From the NCBI GenBank assembly GCA_023409755.1, contig JAEYRA010000155.1, positions 1 through 52,542 on the forward strand: a stretch of DNA of 52,542 nt. Direction: 5' to 3'. This document shows positions 303 to 47,815 of this stretch, piece after piece. Position numbers and translations under genes: made by a program. Numbering within the stretch: the first letter of the stretch is position 1; each line of letters opens with the position of its first letter. Source of the stretch: Bacillota bacterium (GTDB taxonomy: Bacteria > Bacillota > Clostridia > Christensenellales > UMGS416). The notes under the pieces were generated by a model. It was not told where the DNA came from. It did no database searches and saw nothing but the letters and a program-made list of their open reading frames with translations.

Positions 303-2345
303 CTATTGTATGAATACGACCCGAGCATCGTCTTGTTCAAGCCGCACAGTGATCCGCAAGCGGCTTGAGGGGGTGAACTCCCAGGAGTCAGCGCCATTCA
401 CTCCAGTAAACATCTCCCTATTGACTGGGTCTGTAATATACTCAAACACGCCGCTGCCTCTCGTAAAGAAGCAAATCACGCCTTTGGCGGCCTGTAGATC
501 AAGCTTAGCATGGATCTCCGGGCTGGAACCCAAGAAGCCCTTTGTTTTTGCGGCATTGGCAGTGACATATGGCGCGACTGCTTTGTATTGCTCGAGTGTA
601 TCGCGGAACAATGCGATTCCTTCGGCATCCATTGCGGAGAGATCTCCCCAGATACCATTACCTCCCAGTACAAGGGAAGCCAATGCATTTCGTTGTGCCT
701 TGGCAGGTCCGTCAGGCAAAAAATGCGTCAGGAACAGGATTGATGGGATGAAACTGTCATACTTAATCCCTTGTCTGCAAACACGGCCTCTCGCAGCACC
801 TGGATGAAAGAACACATTGATTGTGTCCGGCAGACGCTTATGCTCTGGAGGGATATCAAAACTGCTGAAATATGGCCCATTGTTCATTAGGAAATACTTC
901 CCGACAGATAGAAAGCCCAGTCCGACGAAACGACCGCCTTCCGTAATATCGAAATCAACAATTGCGTCTGGGCAGACCTTGGAAACCTCCTCAACAATGC
1001 GGATCATTTCCAGGCCCATTTGATAGCTGTAACAATCCAGCCTCTCTTGCGGAGAATTTTCCTGCGTCCCATGATCATGGTTGGGAGAATTACAACCATA
1101 TTGACCAATGGCATCCCATTTAAAATAAGTAACGCCCAACTCTTGATACAGGCGCACCATTGTTTTAATGAAATGATCGGCGTAGCCAGATGCCAGGCAC
1201 ATCCCCCAGCTTTCCTCGGTCTCCCAAATCTTTCCCCAGTAATTTTCTTTGCCATCAATACTCATCCGGTACTCCGGGTGCTCGGTATTGATCCGAGACG
1301 AATCAGCAGCAACGATCGGGTTAAACCAAAGACCCAACTTCATGCCATACTTGTCAAGCTTCTTCCGTACTTCTTGCATGCCATCGGGAAAGCGCTCCTG
1401 GTTAATGACCCAGTCACCTGTCCGGATAAACCATCCAGTATCGATTACGAATACATCAACCCCCATCGCTGCAGCTGTGTCGATTTCTGCAAGGGTGTGC
1501 TGCAGGTTCATGGAATGTAAGTAGGGCAGGTTGTGGTAATACCGGTTTCGCTCCTGTTTATTCCAAGTGTTGTAGAAGATATACGGCTTGCGTGATTCAG
1601 TGTTTTCTGAGATAAACCGCAGGAAGAATTCACGGTAATGGCAGAACAGGGTGTCGCGGCTGCCTGTGCAGCCAAGAACATGAAACCAAGGTGATTCCAG
1701 AGGATGCTCCTTGTCAATGCTCTGGCCGTTGTAATAATTCCCTTTTCTGGCATGGATGGAGATAGCTGTTTGTTCATCATACTTCCTTGCTTTGAACATC
1801 AGATAGGAGTCTGGATATTCAGCGCCGTGTTCATAAGCCATTAAGCAGCAATATCCCTGTGTTTCTGCCAAAGCGATTGGGCCAGGGAATTGTATCCCCT
1901 CCTCAAGTTCTGATTCGGTTTTCAAATCAAAAGTTGGCAGAAAGGAATGGACGATGGTGTCAAACTGGCTTAATAGAATCTCTGTTAAGTCAACTTCCCC
2001 ATTGAAGCAAAGCCCTGTATAAAGGATATTGTCTTCTCCCATGCTTTTTGTAAGCGTGGCAGATTCGCAGCAATCCAAACGATAGCGAAACCGTGCGACG
2101 GGAGAATTGGGAAAGGTTCTGCATATGATCGTCAAGCGGAATGGCCCATGGATGTATTGATACTGTACTTCACGCCCACCGTTTTGCAAATCCCTTAACA
2201 ACGATACCCCAGCAGATACCCAGGATTGACCGCCGATGGTTTGACCGTTTGCTTCATAGACCGGTTCTTTCAGATTGATTACAAAATCGTCAAAATGCAA
2301 GGATAAAAATGCACCATCTTTATCATTGATAACCACAGTTGACAT
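303..2345 (-). CDS. Glycoside hydrolase family 36 alpha-galactosidase-like protein
   Basis: 680-aa ORF with ATG at 2345 and TAG at 303-305. RBS-like GAAAGGA sits upstream. The motifs VFVIDTGWF and YFKWDAIG are typical of GH36/GH27 clan-D alpha-galactosidases. The gene is visibly more AT-rich than its neighbours. Confidence 0.85.
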   Translation of the reverse strand: MSTVVINDKDGAFLSLHFDDFVINLKEPVYEANGQTIGGQSWVSAGVSLLRDLQNGGREVQYQYIHGPFRLTIICRTFPNSPVARFRYRLDCCESATLTKSMGEDNILYTGLCFNGEVDLTEILLSQFDTIVHSFLPTFDLKTESELEEGIQFPGPIALAETQGYCCLMAYEHGAEYPDSYLMFKARKYDEQTAISIHARKGNYYNGQSIDKEHPLESPWFHVLGCTGSRDTLFCHYREFFLRFISENTESRKPYIFYNTWNKQERNRYYHNLPYLHSMNLQHTLAEIDTAAAMGVDVFVIDTGWFIRTGDWVINQERFPDGMQEVRKKLDKYGMKLGLWFNPIVAADSSRINTEHPEYRMSIDGKENYWGKIWETEESWGMCLASGYADHFIKTMVRLYQELGVTYFKWDAIGQYGCNSPNHDHGTQENSPQERLDCYSYQMGLEMIRIVEEVSKVCPDAIVDFDITEGGRFVGLGFLSVGKYFLMNNGPYFSSFDIPPEHKRLPDTINVFFHPGAARGRVCRQGIKYDSFIPSILFLTHFLPDGPAKAQRNALASLVLGGNGIWGDLSAMDAEGIALFRDTLEQYKAVAPYVTANAAKTKGFLGSSPEIHAKLDLQAAKGVICFFTRGSGVFEYITDPVNREMFTGVNGADSWEFTPSSRLRITVRLEQDDARVVFIQ

Positions 2346-2685: not shown

Positions 2686-4080
2686 TTACAGGAACAGATC
2701 CCGCTCTCCCGCACGCATGCGCTTGAGCTTGTCCTGCACAGTGGCACGCAGCCGGCCGTCCGTGATGGCTGCCACCTCCCGCTCGATGAGTTTGCTGCCC
2801 ATGTCGTTGAGCTCGGCGTCGCCGTAATCGAGCATGTACTCCTGCAACGTCAGCAGGGCGTTGGGGGTGCAGACGTTCTGGATCTCCCCACTGCGCGCAA
2901 GAGCCATGAACCGGTCGCCGGTGCGGCCCTGACGGTAGCAGGCCGTGCAGTAGCTGGGGATGTAGCCGTTCTCAATGAGATCCTTGATGACCTCCAGCGG
3001 CCGCCGCTCGTCGGAGAGTTCAAACTGATCGGTGTTGACGCGTCGGCCCTGGGCCGTGGCTTCCTCCTGCTCGTGGTAGCCGCCGATGCCGGTGCTGGAG
3101 CCGGCGCTGACCTGAGAGACGCCGTAGCGAAGCAGCTCATCGCGCATGGCGGCACTCTCCCGGGTGGACATGATGATGCCGGTGTAGGGCACGGCGATGC
3201 GGAGGATCGCCACCAGATGCCGGAACGTCTCGTCGTCCACGAGGTTGGGGAAGTCAGCAAGGCTCATGCCTTCGGCCTGCTTCAGGCGCGGCATGCTGAT
3301 GGTGTGGAAGCCCACGCCATAGGTCTGTTCCAGGTGGTCGTTGTGCATCATCAGGGCCAGCGCCTCATACCGCGGGTCGGCCAGGCCGAAGAGCACACCC
3401 GCGCCCACGTCCTCAATGCCGGCCTCCATCGCCCGGTCAAAGGCCGTCAGATGGTACTCGTAGCTGCTCTTCCGGCAGTGGGGGTGCATGGCCTCATAGG
3501 TCGGCTTGTGGTATGTCTCCTGAAACAGGATGTAGGTGCCGATGCCCTTGTCGTGGAGCATGCGGTACTCCTCCACCGTGGTGGCGGCAATGTTCACATT
3601 GACCCGGCGAATGCTGCCGTTGTCGAGCTTGGTCTCGTAGATGGCGTCCAGCGCCTCCAGAATGTACTCAATGGGGCAGTTGACCGGGTCCTCCCCGGCC
3701 TCCAGCGCCAGGCGCTTGTGGCCCATGCGTTCCAACGCTCGTACCTCAGCCTGAATTTCCTCGCGTGTCAGTTTTTTACGCGGCATGGCGTTGCAGCGCT
3801 GGTAGCCGCAGTACACGCAGTTGTTCACGCAGTGGTTGGAGACATAAAGCGGCGCAAACAGCACGATGCGGTTGCCGTAGATCTTCCGCTTGATCTCCCC
3901 GGCGACGGCGTACAGCCGGGCCATCAGATCCGGCTCGTCCACGTAAAGCAGCGTCGCGATATCAGCATGATTGAGCCGTTCGCCGCGCTCGGTCTTCTCC
4001 ACGGCGGCGGTTTTTGTTGCCACGGTCGCGCCGGCGGCGTCGGCCAGCAAGCCTTCAATGTACCCTTGATCAATGAACAT
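2686..4080 (-). CDS. hydG: [FeFe]-hydrogenase maturase HydG (radical SAM tyrosine lyase)
   Basis: Radical-SAM motif CVNNCVYC and C-terminal cluster motif CTACYRQGRTGDRFM...NVCTPN (CxxCx22C). The start is trimmed from the track ORF to ATG 4080, which is preceded by GGAGGA. It overlaps the hydE stop by 11 nt. Confidence 0.93.
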   Translation of the reverse strand: MFIDQGYIEGLLADAAGATVATKTAAVEKTERGERLNHADIATLLYVDEPDLMARLYAVAGEIKRKIYGNRIVLFAPLYVSNHCVNNCVYCGYQRCNAMPRKKLTREEIQAEVRALERMGHKRLALEAGEDPVNCPIEYILEALDAIYETKLDNGSIRRVNVNIAATTVEEYRMLHDKGIGTYILFQETYHKPTYEAMHPHCRKSSYEYHLTAFDRAMEAGIEDVGAGVLFGLADPRYEALALMMHNDHLEQTYGVGFHTISMPRLKQAEGMSLADFPNLVDDETFRHLVAILRIAVPYTGIIMSTRESAAMRDELLRYGVSQVSAGSSTGIGGYHEQEEATAQGRRVNTDQFELSDERRPLEVIKDLIENGYIPSYCTACYRQGRTGDRFMALARSGEIQNVCTPNALLTLQEYMLDYGDAELNDMGSKLIEREVAAITDGRLRATVQDKLKRMRAGERDLFL

Positions 4081-42613: not shown

Positions 42614-42646
42614 CAGGTGGGGCCTGCATACCGCCGGCCCCACCTG
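42614..42646. terminator. Bidirectional hairpin between convergent genes
   Basis: CAGGTGGGGCC-(11 nt)-GGCCCCACCTG, an 11-bp stem between the AraC stop and the P-II stop. Confidence 0.5.
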
Positions 42647-42710
42647 TTCACTGATTGAAGTTACGTTGTACAGACGTTGAAGCGAAGGCTCCGCGCGTAC
42701 AGCAGCCCTC

Positions 42711-43016
42711 TTACCCCACGACCCTTTCCACAGGCATCATAAAGCAAATGCCGTTGGTGGGAGTGTTAGGCCCCGCTTTTTCCTTGATCACCGCTATGAT
42801 CCTATCGGCTACGTCTGCGGGGGCAAGGCTCACGATGACTTCCTTCTCGGTATCCACCGTAATCCCCATGATGGACTTATGAATCGTACCCATACCGCGG
42901 GCGTTGATGATGGTCGCCCCCGTAGCCCCTGCCGCACGGGCGATCTCCACAGCCTCATCGGCAAAACCCGCGTTGACAATGATGAACAACGCTTTCATGT
43001 TGCTAGCGATTTCCAT
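42711..43016 (-). CDS. P-II (GlnB-like) family signal-transduction protein
   Basis: KALFIIVNAGFADEAVEIARAAGATGATIINARGMG ... is a ferredoxin-like P-II pattern. ATG 43016 follows GAGGGA. Confidence 0.8.
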   Translation of the reverse strand: MEIASNMKALFIIVNAGFADEAVEIARAAGATGATIINARGMGTIHKSIMGITVDTEKEVIVSLAPADVADRIIAVIKEKAGPNTPTNGICFMMPVERVVG

Positions 43017-43026
43017 TGTTGTCCCT

Positions 43027-43344
43027 CTATTTGGCCAATATTTTATCCACCCGCACGGTGAACGCCCTTCCAGTACCGGGCTTGCCAAAGTTGTACTTCT
43101 CTACCAGTGTATTGAGCATGGTGTCCGCTTTGTCACGAGCCAGCAGGCAAACAAGCATGACTTTGTTCTCTTCCGGTACCAATCCAAGCGCGTCTCGAAA
43201 ATATCCTGACCTGCAACCGTCTCTGCAATAGACTGCATTGATCAAGCAACCGCCCATCTGCGTGAGTGTATCGATGAATACATCTTTATGCTTCTTGGGG
43301 GTGATCAGGACCAGAAAGACAGCGCCGCAATGGGCATTATTCAT
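43027..43344 (-). CDS. Divergent P-II-like protein
   Basis: 105 aa with the same beta-alpha-beta layout (VFLVLITPKKHKDVFIDTLTQMGG ...). ATGAATAA overlap with the DUF1538 stop. Confidence 0.7.
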   Translation of the reverse strand: MNNAHCGAVFLVLITPKKHKDVFIDTLTQMGGCLINAVYCRDGCRSGYFRDALGLVPEENKVMLVCLLARDKADTMLNTLVEKYNFGKPGTGRAFTVRVDKILAK

Positions 43345-44977
43345 GTTGTATATCTGTTTCCTCCATCAAACGTCCAGAGACAACAGCGTCTAAAAACGGA
43401 TTATCCACCGCTTCTGGTTCCTCCTCATATATGGTAAGTGCCGTTAGTTCATCAAGCGCATCCAACTCCATCGCTTTTGCCTTGGCGGTGAGGGTTTTCA
43501 ATCGCATGTCGTATATAATACCTAAACCCTGCACAGCTATCAAGGGGGTAACAGAAATAAATGCAATGATCCCAAAACCATTTGTTAAAACTGACTGAGC
43601 CTGAGACCCAGCTGAGGCAGCTACCGCCTGTGCCGTGCCAAGGGTAAGAGGCGTCAGGAACGCTGAGGTCAGTGCCCCGCCAGTGACACCGCCCGAATCG
43701 AACGCCAGACCCACGAACAGCTTGGAGGTAAACTTCATCATGATCAGCGCCACCGCGTAAAGCGGCACCAGAAACCAGAGGATGTTGATCTGCGTCAGGA
43801 TCTTCACCATGAAGATGAGCGCGGCAAAGCCAATGCCAATGGCCAGCGTCAGTCTGATGGTCAGTTTCTTGATGTGACCGTTCGTAATTTTCTCCAACTG
43901 CTCACCCAACACGGTTACCGCAGGCTCGGAAAGGGTGATGGCTGCGCCTAGAACAAACCCGACCAGAAGCAGCATCCACTTGAACCAACCGGGCCGACTG
44001 GCATCCAGGAAAACCTCGCCAATGTACTTGCCGGCAAACGCAAAGCCATAATCGATGCTTGACAGGAAGATGAGTAGCCCTACGAAGACGGCGGCTGCGC
44101 CAAGCAAGATCTCGATGAACTCCTTTTTGGAGAGTTTGATGAGCCAGAACTGAAAGGGCAGGAATACCACCAACACGGGGATAAGCGCAAGGGCAACACT
44201 GGCCATATTGGATACGACAACGGCCCCCAGGCTATCGACCGCTCCGGGGTTATACAGGCTGGCGAGCGGAAGCGTGCCGCCCGACACTGCCTTCAACACG
44301 ATGCCGTAGAGAAACAACGCCAGAATCGGCCCCACGGAGGCCAGGCCGATGATGCCAAAGGTGTCTTCACTGGTCTTAGTTTTTGACATAGTGCCAGAGA
44401 TGCCCAGGCCGAGCGCCAGAATAAAGGGCACCGAAACGTCACCAGTCGTCGCACCGCTGCCATCAAAGGAGAGCGCAACAAACTGCTCGGGGACGAAGAT
44501 AATCATGAGGAAAATCAGGCCGTAAAGGATGGCAAAAACGAGCTTGAGGTTCAGGTTCTTCATAATCCGGTACAACGAGAACGCGACGAAAACGCCGATG
44601 CCCAAACTCAACACCCAGATAAACAGAGTTTCGTTTACGTTGTTCATGATCATGTGGGTCTGCTTGGCCAGAACCGTCAACGCGGGTTCGGCAACCGTCA
44701 CCAACAGACCAAACAGGAAACCAACAAAAATGATCACTGCGGCTTTTTTCAGCTTAATGAGAGAACTGCCCACCAATTTACCGATCGGCAGAATGCTGAT
44801 GTCCAAACCATCCAAAAACACGGCTTGGCCCAACACGACGCCAGCATAACCAATAATTAATCTAACATAATCAAAAAGGTTTTCCATGGGGGCCACAAAA
44901 CCGCATACCACAATGATCACAACGGCAAGCGGCAGTGAGGACAAAAAGACATCTTTTATCGTGCTAAATAACTTCAT
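43337..44977 (-). CDS. DUF1538-type polytopic membrane protein (internally duplicated)
   Basis: About 12 or more TM helices. The repeated motifs FDGSGATTGDVSVPFILALGLG and FDSGGVTGGALTSAFLTPLTLG match my recollection of DUF1538. ATG 44977 has no own RBS; it overlaps the stop of a small upstream ORF. Confidence 0.8.
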   Translation of the reverse strand: MKLFSTIKDVFLSSLPLAVVIIVVCGFVAPMENLFDYVRLIIGYAGVVLGQAVFLDGLDISILPIGKLVGSSLIKLKKAAVIIFVGFLFGLLVTVAEPALTVLAKQTHMIMNNVNETLFIWVLSLGIGVFVAFSLYRIMKNLNLKLVFAILYGLIFLMIIFVPEQFVALSFDGSGATTGDVSVPFILALGLGISGTMSKTKTSEDTFGIIGLASVGPILALFLYGIVLKAVSGGTLPLASLYNPGAVDSLGAVVVSNMASVALALIPVLVVFLPFQFWLIKLSKKEFIEILLGAAAVFVGLLIFLSSIDYGFAFAGKYIGEVFLDASRPGWFKWMLLLVGFVLGAAITLSEPAVTVLGEQLEKITNGHIKKLTIRLTLAIGIGFAALIFMVKILTQINILWFLVPLYAVALIMMKFTSKLFVGLAFDSGGVTGGALTSAFLTPLTLGTAQAVAASAGSQAQSVLTNGFGIIAFISVTPLIAVQGLGIIYDMRLKTLTAKAKAMELDALDELTALTIYEEEPEAVDNPFLDAVVSGRLMEETDIQHE

Positions 44978-45069
44978 AGGGCAATGTAACCGCTGAAGAC
45001 CTCGCAATAAAAGCAACAACCGATGGGCCTAAGCCCTTTCCATGTCTTACATCGCTGCACCGCTTTCAT
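44974..45069 (-). CDS. Candidate 31-aa Cys-rich small ORF translationally coupled to the DUF1538 gene
   Basis: AAGGAGA lies 7 nt before ATG 45069. The peptide is MKAVQRCKTWKGLRPIGCCFYCEVFSGYIAL. Its stop TGA overlaps ATG 44977 (ATGA). Confidence 0.35.
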   Translation of the reverse strand: MKAVQRCKTWKGLRPIGCCFYCEVFSGYIAL

Positions 45070-45097
45070 GAATATCTGTCTCCTTTTCAATTGATTT

Positions 45098-47815
45098 CTA
45101 TCCATCCTGCCCTTCCAGCGGCAGGTGAATGGCTTTGGAAAAAGCTTCCACGACCTCCGGGTCATATCGGCTCCCAACCAGAGCGCGCAGTTCATCCAGC
45201 GCCTCCTCCTTGGTGTACTGCCGGCTGCTGTATCTGCCGCAGCGCATGGCATCGTAGCTGTCGGCCACCGCCAGAACGCGGGAATAGAGCGGGATGTCCG
45301 TCCCCTTGAGGTGGCGGGGGTATCCGCTGCCGTCCATACGCTCGTGGTGGCACAGCAGGAAGTCGGCCATCCATGCCAGCTCCCGATTGGCCTTAATGAT
45401 GTGGTATCCAACCTCAGGGTGGCGGCGCAACTCCTTCCAGTTTTCTTCCGTCAGCGCTCCCTTCTTGCTCAGCATCTTGGGGCTGATAACAATCTTGCCA
45501 ATGTCATGCACCTCGCCCACTTTACGCAGTTCCTCAGACCGCTCCACGGGCAGGCCAAGCTCCAGAGCGGTACGGGCCGCCAACTCGCTGACACGCTGGG
45601 CGTGCTGGCGCTCCCACGGTACCCGGCGGAAGAGTTCCTCCAGCAGGACAACAGCGAGTTTGCCGTTCTCCTGTTGGTTCTCCAGCGTCTTGTTGCGGTA
45701 CATGGCGTCCTCCGCCAGGCTCATGGCGTCGTTGAAGGGCTGAACGCTCTCCTGCTTGGTGTAGCTGCCAATGGAAATGGACAGATCGACCAAACCCACC
45801 TTATGTCCCTTTGTGGCATTCTTGAGCCGCTCCGTGAGACGAGCAGCCTCATCAGCGCTGGTACGGGGCAGCAGCAGTACAAACTCATCGCCACCCCAAC
45901 GGGCCAAAATATCATCGCGCCGACAAACGGAAGAGAGCACTTCCGCTGCCTTGCGCAGCAGGTCGTCACCGGCAAGGTGCCCAAACACATCGTTGGCCAG
46001 CTTCAGGCCGTTGACATCGCCCATGACGATGGTGAGCGGCAGGTTGCGCTCCACGTCCAGCCGGTGCAGCTCCTCCTCAAAGAACCGCCGGTTGTATAGG
46101 CCGGTCAGGCTGTCATGATAGCTGAGGTAGGCAATGGCACGTTGTTTGTTCTTCTCCTCCGTCACGTCGTCGAAGGCGATCACAATACCGCGCAGCCGTC
46201 CCTGCTGGCGGGCGGCCGTCACCCCGCCGGCAATGAAATACTCCACGCCGTTGCGGGATTGGAGAATGCAGCCTTCCAGCGGGAGCGTTCCCTGCTCTCC
46301 ACCATCGGCGAAGCGCTCCACCGGGAAGGAGCGGGGGTAACGCGTGTTCTCGTCGACGGTGCGGAAGACCTCTTGAATAGGCTGTCCGATGGCATCTTCC
46401 TCCTGCCATCCGGTCAGCAGTGCTGCACGGTCGTTGATGATGGTGACGATGCCGTTGACATCAGTGGCGATGACAGCCTCGCTGAGCGCCGTTATGGTGG
46501 AGCGGAAGAGCTCGCGTTCCTCTGCCAGTCGCTGTTCGGAGCGCTTGCGCTGCACGAATTGCAGCGTACTCTCCAGCAGGATCGTCACCTGCCACAGGTC
46601 CATGGCATTGTAGTCCGTCTCCTTGTTGGCCAGACCAATCGTCAGCAGCACGTCCTCCTGGTCGTTCATCGGCATCAGCAGAAAGGTGCGAATCTCACCG
46701 GCCAACGCCGTCAGGGGCGTTGGGGGGATGGCATCGTGTACCCCCAACAGAACCGGACACCGGCGTTCCTCCACTTCCCGCAGGAAGTCAATGGCGCCAC
46801 CGTCCAGCGGCACCCCATTCTCCGTCTGCCGCACCTGGGCCGACCGGGACCACAGCCACCGTTCGGGCTCACAGCCATCGCCTTTGTTCACGATAAACCC
46901 CAGGTCGCTGCCCGACAACTTCAGTATCTCTTCCAGCACATAGGCGAGGATCTCATCCTCGTCGTCGCCGTCGTGGTTGAATACCTTCACCAAACTCTCG
47001 TTGCGCTGGTTGCTTTTGCGCACTTCATCTTGGGCCAGCACGGTCTCGGTCACATCCCGAAAGACCGTGACGAACTGCCCTGGCTCATGGCTGAACACCG
47101 ACACGTCCAAGTGCTTTCCCTTGGGCGCGAAATAGGACTGGAAACGATCGGGCCGGCCTGTGCGCACCACCCGGGCGTACTGCTCCAGGTAAGCGGGCTC
47201 CTCCGTACCGTAGAGCTCATCCCCCAGGCGCCCGATGGCCTGCTCCCGCGGGATCTGCATGATGCGCTCAAACCCGGGGTTGACGTCAAGCGTGCGGTAA
47301 TTGACGGGTTCCCCCGCCACGTCATACACCATTTCCCGCACACAGACGCCCTCGGTCATCGCCTCGAACAACAGGCGATAATGAGTGGTGCTGGCCAGCG
47401 GCCGGTCCGCTCCCCAGCGCTTCCGCAGGTCCCTCACGAAGACAAGCCACAGCGGCCGGCTCTCCAGCTCCACCAAAGTAGATGACACCTCCACCGAGAA
47501 CGGACGGCCATCCTTGCGGAAGTGAGTCGTCTCAAGAGGCAGTCCCTCTGCCAGCGCTTGCTGGGACAAGCTGTCCGGGAACTCCCCCCTCCACAGGTCG
47601 GTAAGCGTCAGCGCCAAAATCTCTTCCAGCGTATAATCATAGGCTGCCAGCGCCGCAGGGTTGGCCTGCAGAATCCGTCCCTCGGGTTCGGTGATGAGAA
47701 CGATGTCCCGAGCCTTATCAAAAAGCGTTTCAAAGCGTTGCAATGACGCTACCGCCTTTCCACAAATCTCATTCGTACCAAAGAGCGTACGCACTGGTGG
47801 ACACCGCCAGGGCAC
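45098..47815 (-). CDS. Multidomain c-di-GMP signalling protein: PAS/GAF sensor domains plus GGDEF plus HD-GYP
   Basis: Intact RWGGDEFVLLL (GGDEF) and HHERMDGSGYP (HD-GYP) motifs, with several PAS-like repeats and a GAF-like segment. The start is uncertain. The track ORF starts at GTG 47815, inside glpP. TTG 47743 after GGAAAGG is the first start downstream of the glpP stop. Confidence 0.88.
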   Translation of the reverse strand: MPWRCPPVRTLFGTNEICGKAVASLQRFETLFDKARDIVLITEPEGRILQANPAALAAYDYTLEEILALTLTDLWRGEFPDSLSQQALAEGLPLETTHFRKDGRPFSVEVSSTLVELESRPLWLVFVRDLRKRWGADRPLASTTHYRLLFEAMTEGVCVREMVYDVAGEPVNYRTLDVNPGFERIMQIPREQAIGRLGDELYGTEEPAYLEQYARVVRTGRPDRFQSYFAPKGKHLDVSVFSHEPGQFVTVFRDVTETVLAQDEVRKSNQRNESLVKVFNHDGDDEDEILAYVLEEILKLSGSDLGFIVNKGDGCEPERWLWSRSAQVRQTENGVPLDGGAIDFLREVEERRCPVLLGVHDAIPPTPLTALAGEIRTFLLMPMNDQEDVLLTIGLANKETDYNAMDLWQVTILLESTLQFVQRKRSEQRLAEERELFRSTITALSEAVIATDVNGIVTIINDRAALLTGWQEEDAIGQPIQEVFRTVDENTRYPRSFPVERFADGGEQGTLPLEGCILQSRNGVEYFIAGGVTAARQQGRLRGIVIAFDDVTEEKNKQRAIAYLSYHDSLTGLYNRRFFEEELHRLDVERNLPLTIVMGDVNGLKLANDVFGHLAGDDLLRKAAEVLSSVCRRDDILARWGGDEFVLLLPRTSADEAARLTERLKNATKGHKVGLVDLSISIGSYTKQESVQPFNDAMSLAEDAMYRNKTLENQQENGKLAVVLLEELFRRVPWERQHAQRVSELAARTALELGLPVERSEELRKVGEVHDIGKIVISPKMLSKKGALTEENWKELRRHPEVGYHIIKANRELAWMADFLLCHHERMDGSGYPRHLKGTDIPLYSRVLAVADSYDAMRCGRYSSRQYTKEEALDELRALVGSRYDPEVVEAFSKAIHLPLEGQDG

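Follow-up and report, generated by a model that had tools for sequence, protein, structure and literature searches.

The 52,542-nucleotide (nt) stretch analysed here, contig JAEYRA010000155.1 of a Bacillota bacterium of the Christensenellales (hereafter the window, to which all coordinates refer), carries on its minus strand a three-gene cassette that encodes a fused membrane protein of the DUF1538 family and two different proteins of the P-II fold, here called PII-A and PII-B. The cassette is preceded by an open reading frame (ORF) of 31 codons, the micro-ORF, whose stop codon overlaps the start codon of the DUF1538 gene. Our preferred explanation, to which we assign a probability of about one half, is that this is a foreign cassette, leaderless by descent, which specifies a P-II-gated transporter, and that the micro-ORF acts as a local patch for its translation. 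The unit, acquired horizontally, would encode a DUF1538 transporter of the fused UmpA/UmpB type together with two P-II-fold paralogues, and these would form a heteromeric complex by which the transporter is gated at its cytoplasmic face according to a small ligand. Elsewhere the cassette would normally be a transcription unit of its own, transcribed from, or from a few bases away from, the A of the DUF1538 ATG, which would give a leaderless mRNA. In this genome it is located 120 nt behind a gene for a GGDEF/HD-GYP protein, with no recognisable promoter, which makes read-through transcription probable. On such a leadered transcript an AUG without a Shine-Dalgarno (SD) sequence would be a poor start site in an organism that uses strong SD sequences. 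We propose that ribosomes load at the SD of the micro-ORF, terminate at its overlapping UGA and reinitiate at the DUF1538 AUG, the micro-ORF thus acting by being translated and not via its peptide.

The three-gene cassette is a conserved, relocatable unit that is common in Clostridia. Searches with the DUF1538 protein gave 2266 homologues at E <= 1e-20, the best of which is 76% identical over its full length, and the named sources of these homologues are Clostridia, e.g. Desulfitobacterium, Sporobacter and Anaerotaenia. About 20 distinct orthologous loci were collected; peptide-pattern scans of genomes and metagenomes gave 9 and 6 loci, respectively, the closest at about 80% identity. Their DUF1538 proteins are 56–81% identical to that of the window; in the 17 loci of this clade for which downstream DNA is present, identities to the window proteins are 56–80% for DUF1538, 35–55% for PII-A and 50–74% for PII-B. 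The gene order DUF1538, PII-A, PII-B was found in all 17 of these, in agreement with the module of one DUF1538 gene and two P-II genes delineated in a first-pass annotation of the sequence. The 8-nt overlap and subsequent 10-nt gap described there for the window genes agree with the coordinates (Table 1), and in relatives with called genes the DUF1538/PII-A overlap is usually 8 nt as well (range 8–17 nt). This positioning of a P-II gene, overlapping or nearly abutting the DUF1538 gene that it follows, suggests stoichiometric co-production.

The genes that flank the cassette vary by locus (GntR-aminotransferase, DegV, LysR, RuvX, methyltransferases and others), and none of the other orthologous loci examined has a GGDEF/HD-GYP or glpP neighbour. 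Possible co-transcription with an enzyme of cyclic di-GMP (c-di-GMP) metabolism had been proposed earlier: the adjacency is real in this genome, but a link extending beyond it is not, as the GGDEF gene is absent from every other locus. A conserved c-di-GMP signalling link was rejected as a general feature on these grounds, and the neighbouring c-di-GMP enzyme is best regarded as a local accident of insertion.

In a survey of genomic neighbourhoods, as had been suggested with the initial finding, a P-II gene was found downstream of DUF1538 in every locus examined; in a plasmid collection it follows directly in 7 of 7 distinct DUF1538 loci. Methylocystis and Chelativorans (Alphaproteobacteria) have split DUF1538 genes and a single B-like P-II gene. 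Peptoclostridium, Paraclostridium, Vescimonas, Subdoligranulum and Acetoanaerobium combine a fused DUF1538 gene with a gene for a protein of about 222–240 residues that has two P-II domains, of which the B-like domain is C-terminal (61–74 bits), i.e. in the same A-then-B order as in the window. These tandem fusions are annotated as 'P-II family nitrogen regulator' (L028:4475-5143, L031:4500-5174, L033:3463-4131, and further in L032 and L034). In the literature searched, no description of tandem-P-II proteins downstream of DUF1538 was found, nor any paper describing a link between DUF1538 and P-II. Separately, the DUF1538-DUF1538-P-II unit of Methylocystis rosea pGW6_2 (L029, 3459-5250) was seen to lie between IS66 transposase/TnpB genes on a mobilizable plasmid, which suggests that in Alphaproteobacteria the module is mobile in the manner of a composite transposon.

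The DUF1538 protein of the window matches Pfam family PF07556 in two stretches, with 381 bits against a cutoff of 22.6. Among the NCBIfam models, residues 15–227 score best with UmpA (147.6 bits) and residues 257–491 with UmpB (125.6 bits). Both scores fall well short of the equivalog cutoffs (490 for NF041627 and 500 for NF041628), which makes the protein a member of the family and not an orthologue of UmpAB. The AlphaFold2 model is an all-helical two-repeat bundle, with a predicted local distance difference test (pLDDT) of 78.7 and a predicted template-modelling (TM) score, pTM, of 0.77. A Foldseek search of this model against the PDB gave no significant match (best E = 0.04, TM-score at most 0.2), and phmmer found no sequence relative among the solved structures, so no mechanistic analogy can be drawn from the fold. 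UmpAB, a pair of DUF1538 proteins from Halomonas zhaodongensis, has been shown to be a Na+(Li+,K+)/H+ antiporter (PMC5484666), and the earlier statement that the substrate of DUF1538 proteins is unknown needs to be qualified to that extent. By analogy with this pair, the DUF1538 protein of the window is most likely a cation/proton exchanger.

Of the two proteins encoded downstream, PII-B is recognised by the Pfam P-II family (PF00543) with 41 bits (cutoff 25), whereas PII-A, at 17.4 bits, remains below that cutoff. Profile-profile comparison of PII-A and PII-B with hhalign gave a probability of 96.7%. The AlphaFold2 model of PII-A (pLDDT 78) consists of two beta-alpha-beta units joined by a loop, and its Foldseek matches include GlnK1 (2j9e; E = 2e-5, probability 1.0) as well as PstA (TM-score 0.64). 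As judged from its predicted structure, PII-A is a diverged P-II-fold paralogue of PII-B, and the initial recognition of two different P-II-fold proteins at this locus holds for both genes. The PII-A family, gathered by alignment search, comprises 702 proteins, most of which have neither a name nor a Pfam match; a search with the single sequence had matched only itself (too few shared 5-mers).

The solved structure most similar to the PII-B profile is 9p1x_H, a 105-residue P-II chain of the methanogen nitrogenase-NifI1,2 supercomplex (E = 1.6e-5), which from its length we take to be NifI1. A short T-loop is common to PII-B and this chain. In the PII-B family the B-loop sequence is ANGI; its Ile is invariant and takes the place of the basic residue in the GDGK/GDGR motif of the aligned P-II structures (Lys90 in E. 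coli GlnB numbering). In PII-A the family consensus of this loop is NTGI and the window copy has GTGR; the nucleotide-binding motif is thus not kept by either protein. Several PII-B proteins, including that of the window, moreover end before the C-terminal segment of the aligned structures. The fusion of PII-A and PII-B domains in the five Clostridia points, by Rosetta-stone logic, to a joint complex, and the two proteins probably form a single heteromer by which the transporter is gated.

The cassette differs from its surroundings in base composition. The G+C content (GC) calculated in 1-kb intervals is 0.51–0.55 across the module and about 0.60 in the flanks, and a 200-nt profile delimits a low-GC island at about 42700–45100, which includes the 120-nt spacer in front of the DUF1538 gene (0.44 GC). 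At third codon positions, GC (GC3) is 0.64 for DUF1538, 0.59 for PII-A and 0.69 for PII-B, compared to a mean of 0.807 (standard deviation 0.044, minimum 0.69) for 30 other genes of the window, which means that the bias is not merely an effect of membrane proteins or hydrophobic amino acids. In the relatives, the GC of the cassette tracks that of the host DNA; in the window the two values are 0.51 and 0.60. The AT-richness of the module, originally noticed by eye, is therefore borne out by the computed values, and by GC3 and GC profile alike the module is compositionally foreign. The simplest reading of these data is a fairly recent horizontal acquisition, from a donor with about 50% GC. A second low-GC patch (0.45–0.52) was observed in the first ~2.5 kb of the window, where the gene for a 680-residue melibiase/GH31-like protein (303-2345, minus strand) has a GC3 of just 0.51 (about 0.81 in the remainder of the window) and is probably foreign too.

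The three genes have not diverged evenly. Window PII-A is 16.8 identity points (3.3 standard deviations) more divergent than predicted from the divergence of DUF1538, while PII-B falls on the trend. Near-invariant positions of PII-A are affected (AGRK to TPKK, YGKG to YCRD and GIAF to GRAF), and the protein has gained Cys33, Cys40 and Cys44. This divergence could reflect relaxed constraint or a functional shift. It fits an improbable alternative in which the whole cassette is decaying, i.e. has lost its promoter and is poorly expressed or silent, with PII-A drifting and the micro-ORF being noise; the lack of a recognisable promoter and a composition that has not yet ameliorated would fit as well. 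In contrast, all three reading frames are intact and of full length, the DUF1538 protein is 76–81% identical to its closest relatives and retains the invariant columns of the family (by construction of the alignment), PII-B evolves at the expected rate, and the 8-nt and 10-nt junctions are preserved. In addition, two contigs from different samples carry the locus and are identical over 10,259 nt, which also argues against decay.

The absence of an SD from the DUF1538 gene, stated in the first-pass annotation, was verified: the 20 nt that precede the ATG contain no SD-like motif. This absence can be understood from the relatives, in which the gene appears to be expressed from a leaderless mRNA. 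In 16 of the 19 loci other than the window, a -10 hexamer (match of at least 4/6) ends 5–8 nt before the ATG and no SD is present. The match is at least 5/6 in 14 of these 16, against a background of 0.98% per position for such matches to TATAAT in the upstream regions, and several of the boxes have a TGn extension. In the closest clade (70–81% identity) the typical form is GTGGTTGnnn, 17 nt, TATAAT, 5 to 7 nt, ATG, often TGn-extended; this is a sigma-A-type promoter contained within the 50 nt 5' of the ATG and so positioned that transcripts would be expected to start at that codon. A TAnnnT motif about 10–12 nt upstream of the start codon is accepted in computational work as a sign of leaderless genes (PMC3160421). 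SDs of the GGAGG type do precede PII-A and PII-B in the orthologous loci. An ordinary SD precedes DUF1538 in the remaining three loci (L016, L018 and L019; one at 73% and two at 59–61% identity). From this distribution we infer that the cassette was ancestrally leaderless. One called gene overlaps such a promoter: in Desulfitobacterium hafniense DP7 a 51-residue ORF (L024:2837-2992) ends 8 nt before the DUF1538 ATG and crosses the extended -10 promoter, and is probably a spurious call.

In the window, the position of the relatives' -10 box is occupied by TACATT, which matches the -10 consensus at 4/6 positions and lacks a TGn extension; the best -35 sequence matches at 3/6, and none is found at 16–18 nt. 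A promoter scan gave no call anywhere in the 120-nt spacer. No convincing terminator was found in the spacer either, the sole terminator-like site (45166-45149) being inside coding sequence. Because the gene upstream has the same orientation, stops 120 nt away and is not followed by a convincing terminator, read-through would be the likeliest source of DUF1538 mRNA. Nearly every other gene of the window has an SD of 5–6 nt, and leader length is one reported determinant of the efficiency of leaderless initiation (bioRxiv 10.1101/2020.05.06.081141).

Two further explanations for the start of the DUF1538 gene were rejected. A MAFFT alignment placed GGTTG...TACATT of the spacer on the -35/-10 elements of the relatives, which would give the window a -35-like TTGCTT with a 22-nt spacing, as if a promoter relic were present. 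In shuffle tests the DNA of the 120-nt spacer did not resemble any relative's upstream region significantly (z <= 2), and homology is not claimed. Initiation at an alternative upstream codon, envisaged at the outset, is contradicted as well: the in-frame TTG at 45019 lacks a usable SD, and in all orthologues the Met-Lys start aligns with position 44977.

The micro-ORF, with its ATG at 45069 and its TGA at 44976-44974, has the geometry that termination-reinitiation coupling requires, and in experiments on 14 gene pairs with ATGA overlaps, 13 showed such coupling (PMC6728339). The ATGA overlap was correctly recognised in the first-pass annotation, as was the AAGGAGA sequence; the spacing of the latter to the micro-ORF ATG is 9 nt (10 nt when counted from GGAG), not 7 nt, and comparable to that at genuine gene starts of the window. 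Likewise, glpP (PF04309) and the GGDEF/HD-GYP gene are indeed upstream on the same strand, while the distance from the latter to the SD is 12 nt and not the ~20 nt given earlier. It is plausible, from the arrangement of these elements, that coupling to the micro-ORF represents a lineage-specific compensation for the weak start in this genome.

Alternatively, the micro-ORF could be fortuitous, a possible explanation that we consider the less probable one. The cassette would then still be expressed in a leaderless manner from a weak TACATT promoter, possibly activator-dependent, and AAGGAGA-ATG would be a chance or vestigial initiation site, from which an ORF in the +1 frame runs into the TGA of ATGAAG. 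TACATT retains A2, T6 and the 5-nt gap of the relatives, and in locus L022 the -10 box also matches at only 4/6 (TACAGT). In L022, however, this box is accompanied by TGn and by a -35 sequence with a 5/6 match (TTGAAA), unlike the window, where both are missing and the promoter scan fails. The frequency of chance sites can be read in both directions. In the 105 kb of both strands there are 38 instances of AGGAG followed by a start codon 5–11 nt later, of which ~25 are away from gene starts, and a single coincidence would be no great surprise across a window of about 40 genes; within this particular 120-nt spacer, only ~0.03 such sites are expected. The absence of the micro-ORF elsewhere, its lack of peptide homologues and the occurrence of ATGA at the start of every orthologue are all in line with a fortuitous ORF. 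Opposed to it are the resemblance of the site, AAAAGGAGACAGATATTCATGAAA, to genuine starts of this genome, and the co-oriented gene upstream from which no convincing terminator separates the cassette.

The preferred explanation, in which the micro-ORF delivers ribosomes to the DUF1538 start, has to be weighed against a very improbable third alternative, that the micro-ORF encodes a regulatory leader peptide (e.g. one for stalling or attenuation by Cys or Cys-tRNA) or a functional Cys-rich small protein. Four Cys residues in 31, a strong SD and the location directly before a transporter gene would speak for this, and control of a leader-peptide type had been considered initially, with a check for conservation upstream of other DUF1538 genes. 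This idea did not withstand comparison: the micro-ORF is missing from the about 20 orthologous loci (56–81% protein identity), an outcome that had been named beforehand as counting against it, and 18 of the 19 other loci lack any such ORF. The exception, L006, has an SD-led ORF of 26 codons upstream of DUF1538, and its peptide is unrelated and in another register. A phmmer search of 1.84 billion representative proteins returned no relatives of the micro-ORF peptide (only two huge repetitive proteins matched), there is no Pfam or NCBIfam match, and the gene callers applied to the source contigs did not call it. The phmmer, Pfam and NCBIfam searches lend no support to the micro-ORF being the relic N-terminus of a displaced gene or a conserved small protein. 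At the RNA level, Rfam gave no match at the gathering score for the whole window and only irrelevant matches at E <= 10 for the leader, whose predicted fold is no better than that of shuffled sequences (z = -0.17) and shows neither alternative hairpins nor a terminator. A riboswitch or leader RNA was rejected on this basis, and with a non-conserved peptide and no special RNA a conserved leader peptide or Cys sensor is essentially excluded.

The ORF of L006 merits description in its own right. In this metagenome-assembled genome (Bacillota OH_SBB_106), the 26-codon ORF is located at 3906-3986, is led by an SD (AAAGGAGG, then ATG) and encodes the peptide MNKCKKAYAKEQKYLFFNKWLPYYRV. It spans positions -95 to -15 and ends 14 nt before a DUF1538 gene that has an unusual GTG start and a TACAAT -10 box. 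L006 may be a parallel case of an upstream ORF helping a weakened leaderless start.

Several considerations weigh against the preferred explanation. Every orthologue starts with Met-Lys or Met-Arg (ATGA...), so that any upstream ORF that is open in the +1 frame will end at this ATGA, and the overlap is not independent evidence of coupling. The TACATT hexamer keeps A2 and T6 at the right distance, hence a weak leaderless promoter may still work, in which case the micro-ORF would be irrelevant. With no detectable homology of the spacer, the decay of an ancestral promoter has to be inferred from the distribution in relatives. As the locus is represented by one genome with two identical contigs, selection on the micro-ORF is not measurable. 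The accelerated change of PII-A could be a sign of a cassette in decay. Finally, the substrate of the transporter may differ from that of UmpAB, given the sub-equivalog scores, and the Ile in the B-loop of PII-B implies that ATP, ADP or 2-oxoglutarate cannot be assumed as the ligand. The micro-ORF is a singleton and the weakest part of the original finding, and ribosome delivery is its sole credible role.

The features of the locus are collected in Table 1. The hairpin downstream of PII-B is likely the 3' end of the transcription unit; it has no T-run and was hence not called by the terminator scan. For the GGDEF/HD-GYP gene, the ORF list gives a 905-residue product from a GTG start that would overlap glpP by 47 nt, whereas the gene callers used on the source contig give 881 residues and a 25-nt gap after glpP; of the two starts, the later is the more probable. 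A single promoter-like site was called in the module (43515-43543, minus strand; TTGATA, 17 nt, TATTAT; 10/12 match). It falls within the DUF1538 gene near its 3' end, some 170 nt before PII-A, and might serve the P-II genes as an internal promoter or be a chance occurrence (one site against 2.2 expected in shuffles).

Table 1. Features of the DUF1538/P-II locus and its borders
Feature	Position	Strand	Remarks
PII-B, P-II family, 101 residues	42711..43016	-	10-nt gap after PII-A; short T-loop, non-canonical B-loop
PII-A, divergent P-II-fold paralogue (predicted), 105 residues	43027..43344	-	8-nt overlap with DUF1538
Fused double-DUF1538 membrane protein, 546 residues	43337..44977	-	UmpA-like N-terminal half, UmpB-like C-terminal half
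TACATT hexamer (TAnnnT)	44983..44988	-	5 nt upstream of DUF1538 ATG; at the position of the relatives' -10 box
Spacer, 120 nt, ~44% GC	44978..45097	-	between GGDEF/HD-GYP gene and DUF1538
Micro-ORF, 31 codons, MKAVQRCKTWKGLRPIGCCFYCEVFSGYIAL	44974..45069	-	TGA overlaps DUF1538 ATG (ATGA)
Shine-Dalgarno sequence AAGGAGA	45079..45085	-	9 nt 5' of micro-ORF ATG, 12 nt 3' of GGDEF/HD-GYP stop
PAS-GGDEF-HD-GYP gene (Pfam)	45098..47815	-	directly upstream of the module, stop at 45098
GC-rich hairpin	42614..42646		14-nt arms, 93% complementary, 5-nt loop; between convergent PII-B and AraC genes

Few signal integrators are as widespread as the P-II proteins, whose targets include AmtB, SbtA, NAGK and nitrogenase. 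The DUF1538 family comprises thousands of proteins, has no relative of solved structure and appears to be a further P-II-controlled group, and the only functional study of it, that on UmpAB, is silent on P-II. The paired P-II paralogues of Clostridia, whether fused or separate, are candidates for a second heteromeric P-II complex, with a pocket that lacks the usual basic B-loop residue. The more durable result is the link of a transporter family without structural relatives to P-II proteins of its own, which in Clostridia are probably heteromeric; the locus itself amounts to a natural experiment on a leaderless gene placed inside an operon. Taken jointly, these elements would make up a wider scheme that we regard as tentative and, as a whole, doubtful. 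In it, DUF1538 would be a large, structurally orphan family of ion exchangers universally equipped with a dedicated P-II protein. The clostridial members would have an obligate heteromeric (or tandem-fused) PII-A/PII-B, which would join NifI1,2 as the second heteromeric P-II system in nature and would be the first with a transporter as its target, with a non-canonical ligand site. At the present locus, a leaderless cassette captured behind the gene of a c-di-GMP enzyme would have been rescued by an SD-led micro-ORF that arose de novo.

Several known systems resemble parts of this locus. GlnK-AmtB and SbtB-SbtA are pairs in which the P-II protein is encoded beside a membrane transporter and plugs it. 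The DUF1538 loci share with them the P-II gene directly downstream of the transporter gene, a linkage kept in every locus examined. They differ in that DUF1538 is another transporter family without a fold match, that the window has two distinct P-II paralogues and not one homotrimer, and that PII-B is devoid of the basic B-loop residue; sequence similarity to SbtB is marginal (E about 0.015-0.03). UmpAB belongs to the same Pfam family as the window transporter and also comprises two homologous DUF1538 units, both of them needed, which act as a hetero-dimer of UmpA and UmpB, whereas in the window they are fused in a single chain. The text on UmpAB has no mention of a P-II partner (PMC5484666), and no Na+/H+ antiporter structure is among the significant Foldseek matches of the window DUF1538 model.

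With respect to expression, the orthologues resemble described leaderless mRNAs (PMC3160421, PMC4633059) in their -10 box at 5–8 nt from the ATG and in the lack of an SD, while the window has a degenerate -10 box, unsupported by a -35 sequence or TGn, and a DUF1538 gene that stands behind a co-oriented gene. With the gene pairs coupled through ATGA (PMC6728339, PMC10666635) the locus shares an SD-led upstream ORF whose stop overlaps a downstream start without an SD; the upstream partner here is a non-conserved, putative ORF of 31 codons in place of an established gene.

The closest parallel for the P-II pair is NifI1/NifI2, described as the sole known heteromeric P-II complex, whose members keep the canonical residues for ADP/ATP and 2-oxoglutarate (bioRxiv 10.1101/2025.09.09.675011; PDB 9p1x). 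The predicted target at the present locus is a membrane transporter and not nitrogenase, no nif genes occur at any locus examined, the basic B-loop residue is missing from PII-B, and the heteromer is here proposed from gene arrangement and domain fusion. What the two systems have in common is a pair of different P-II paralogues encoded in tandem.

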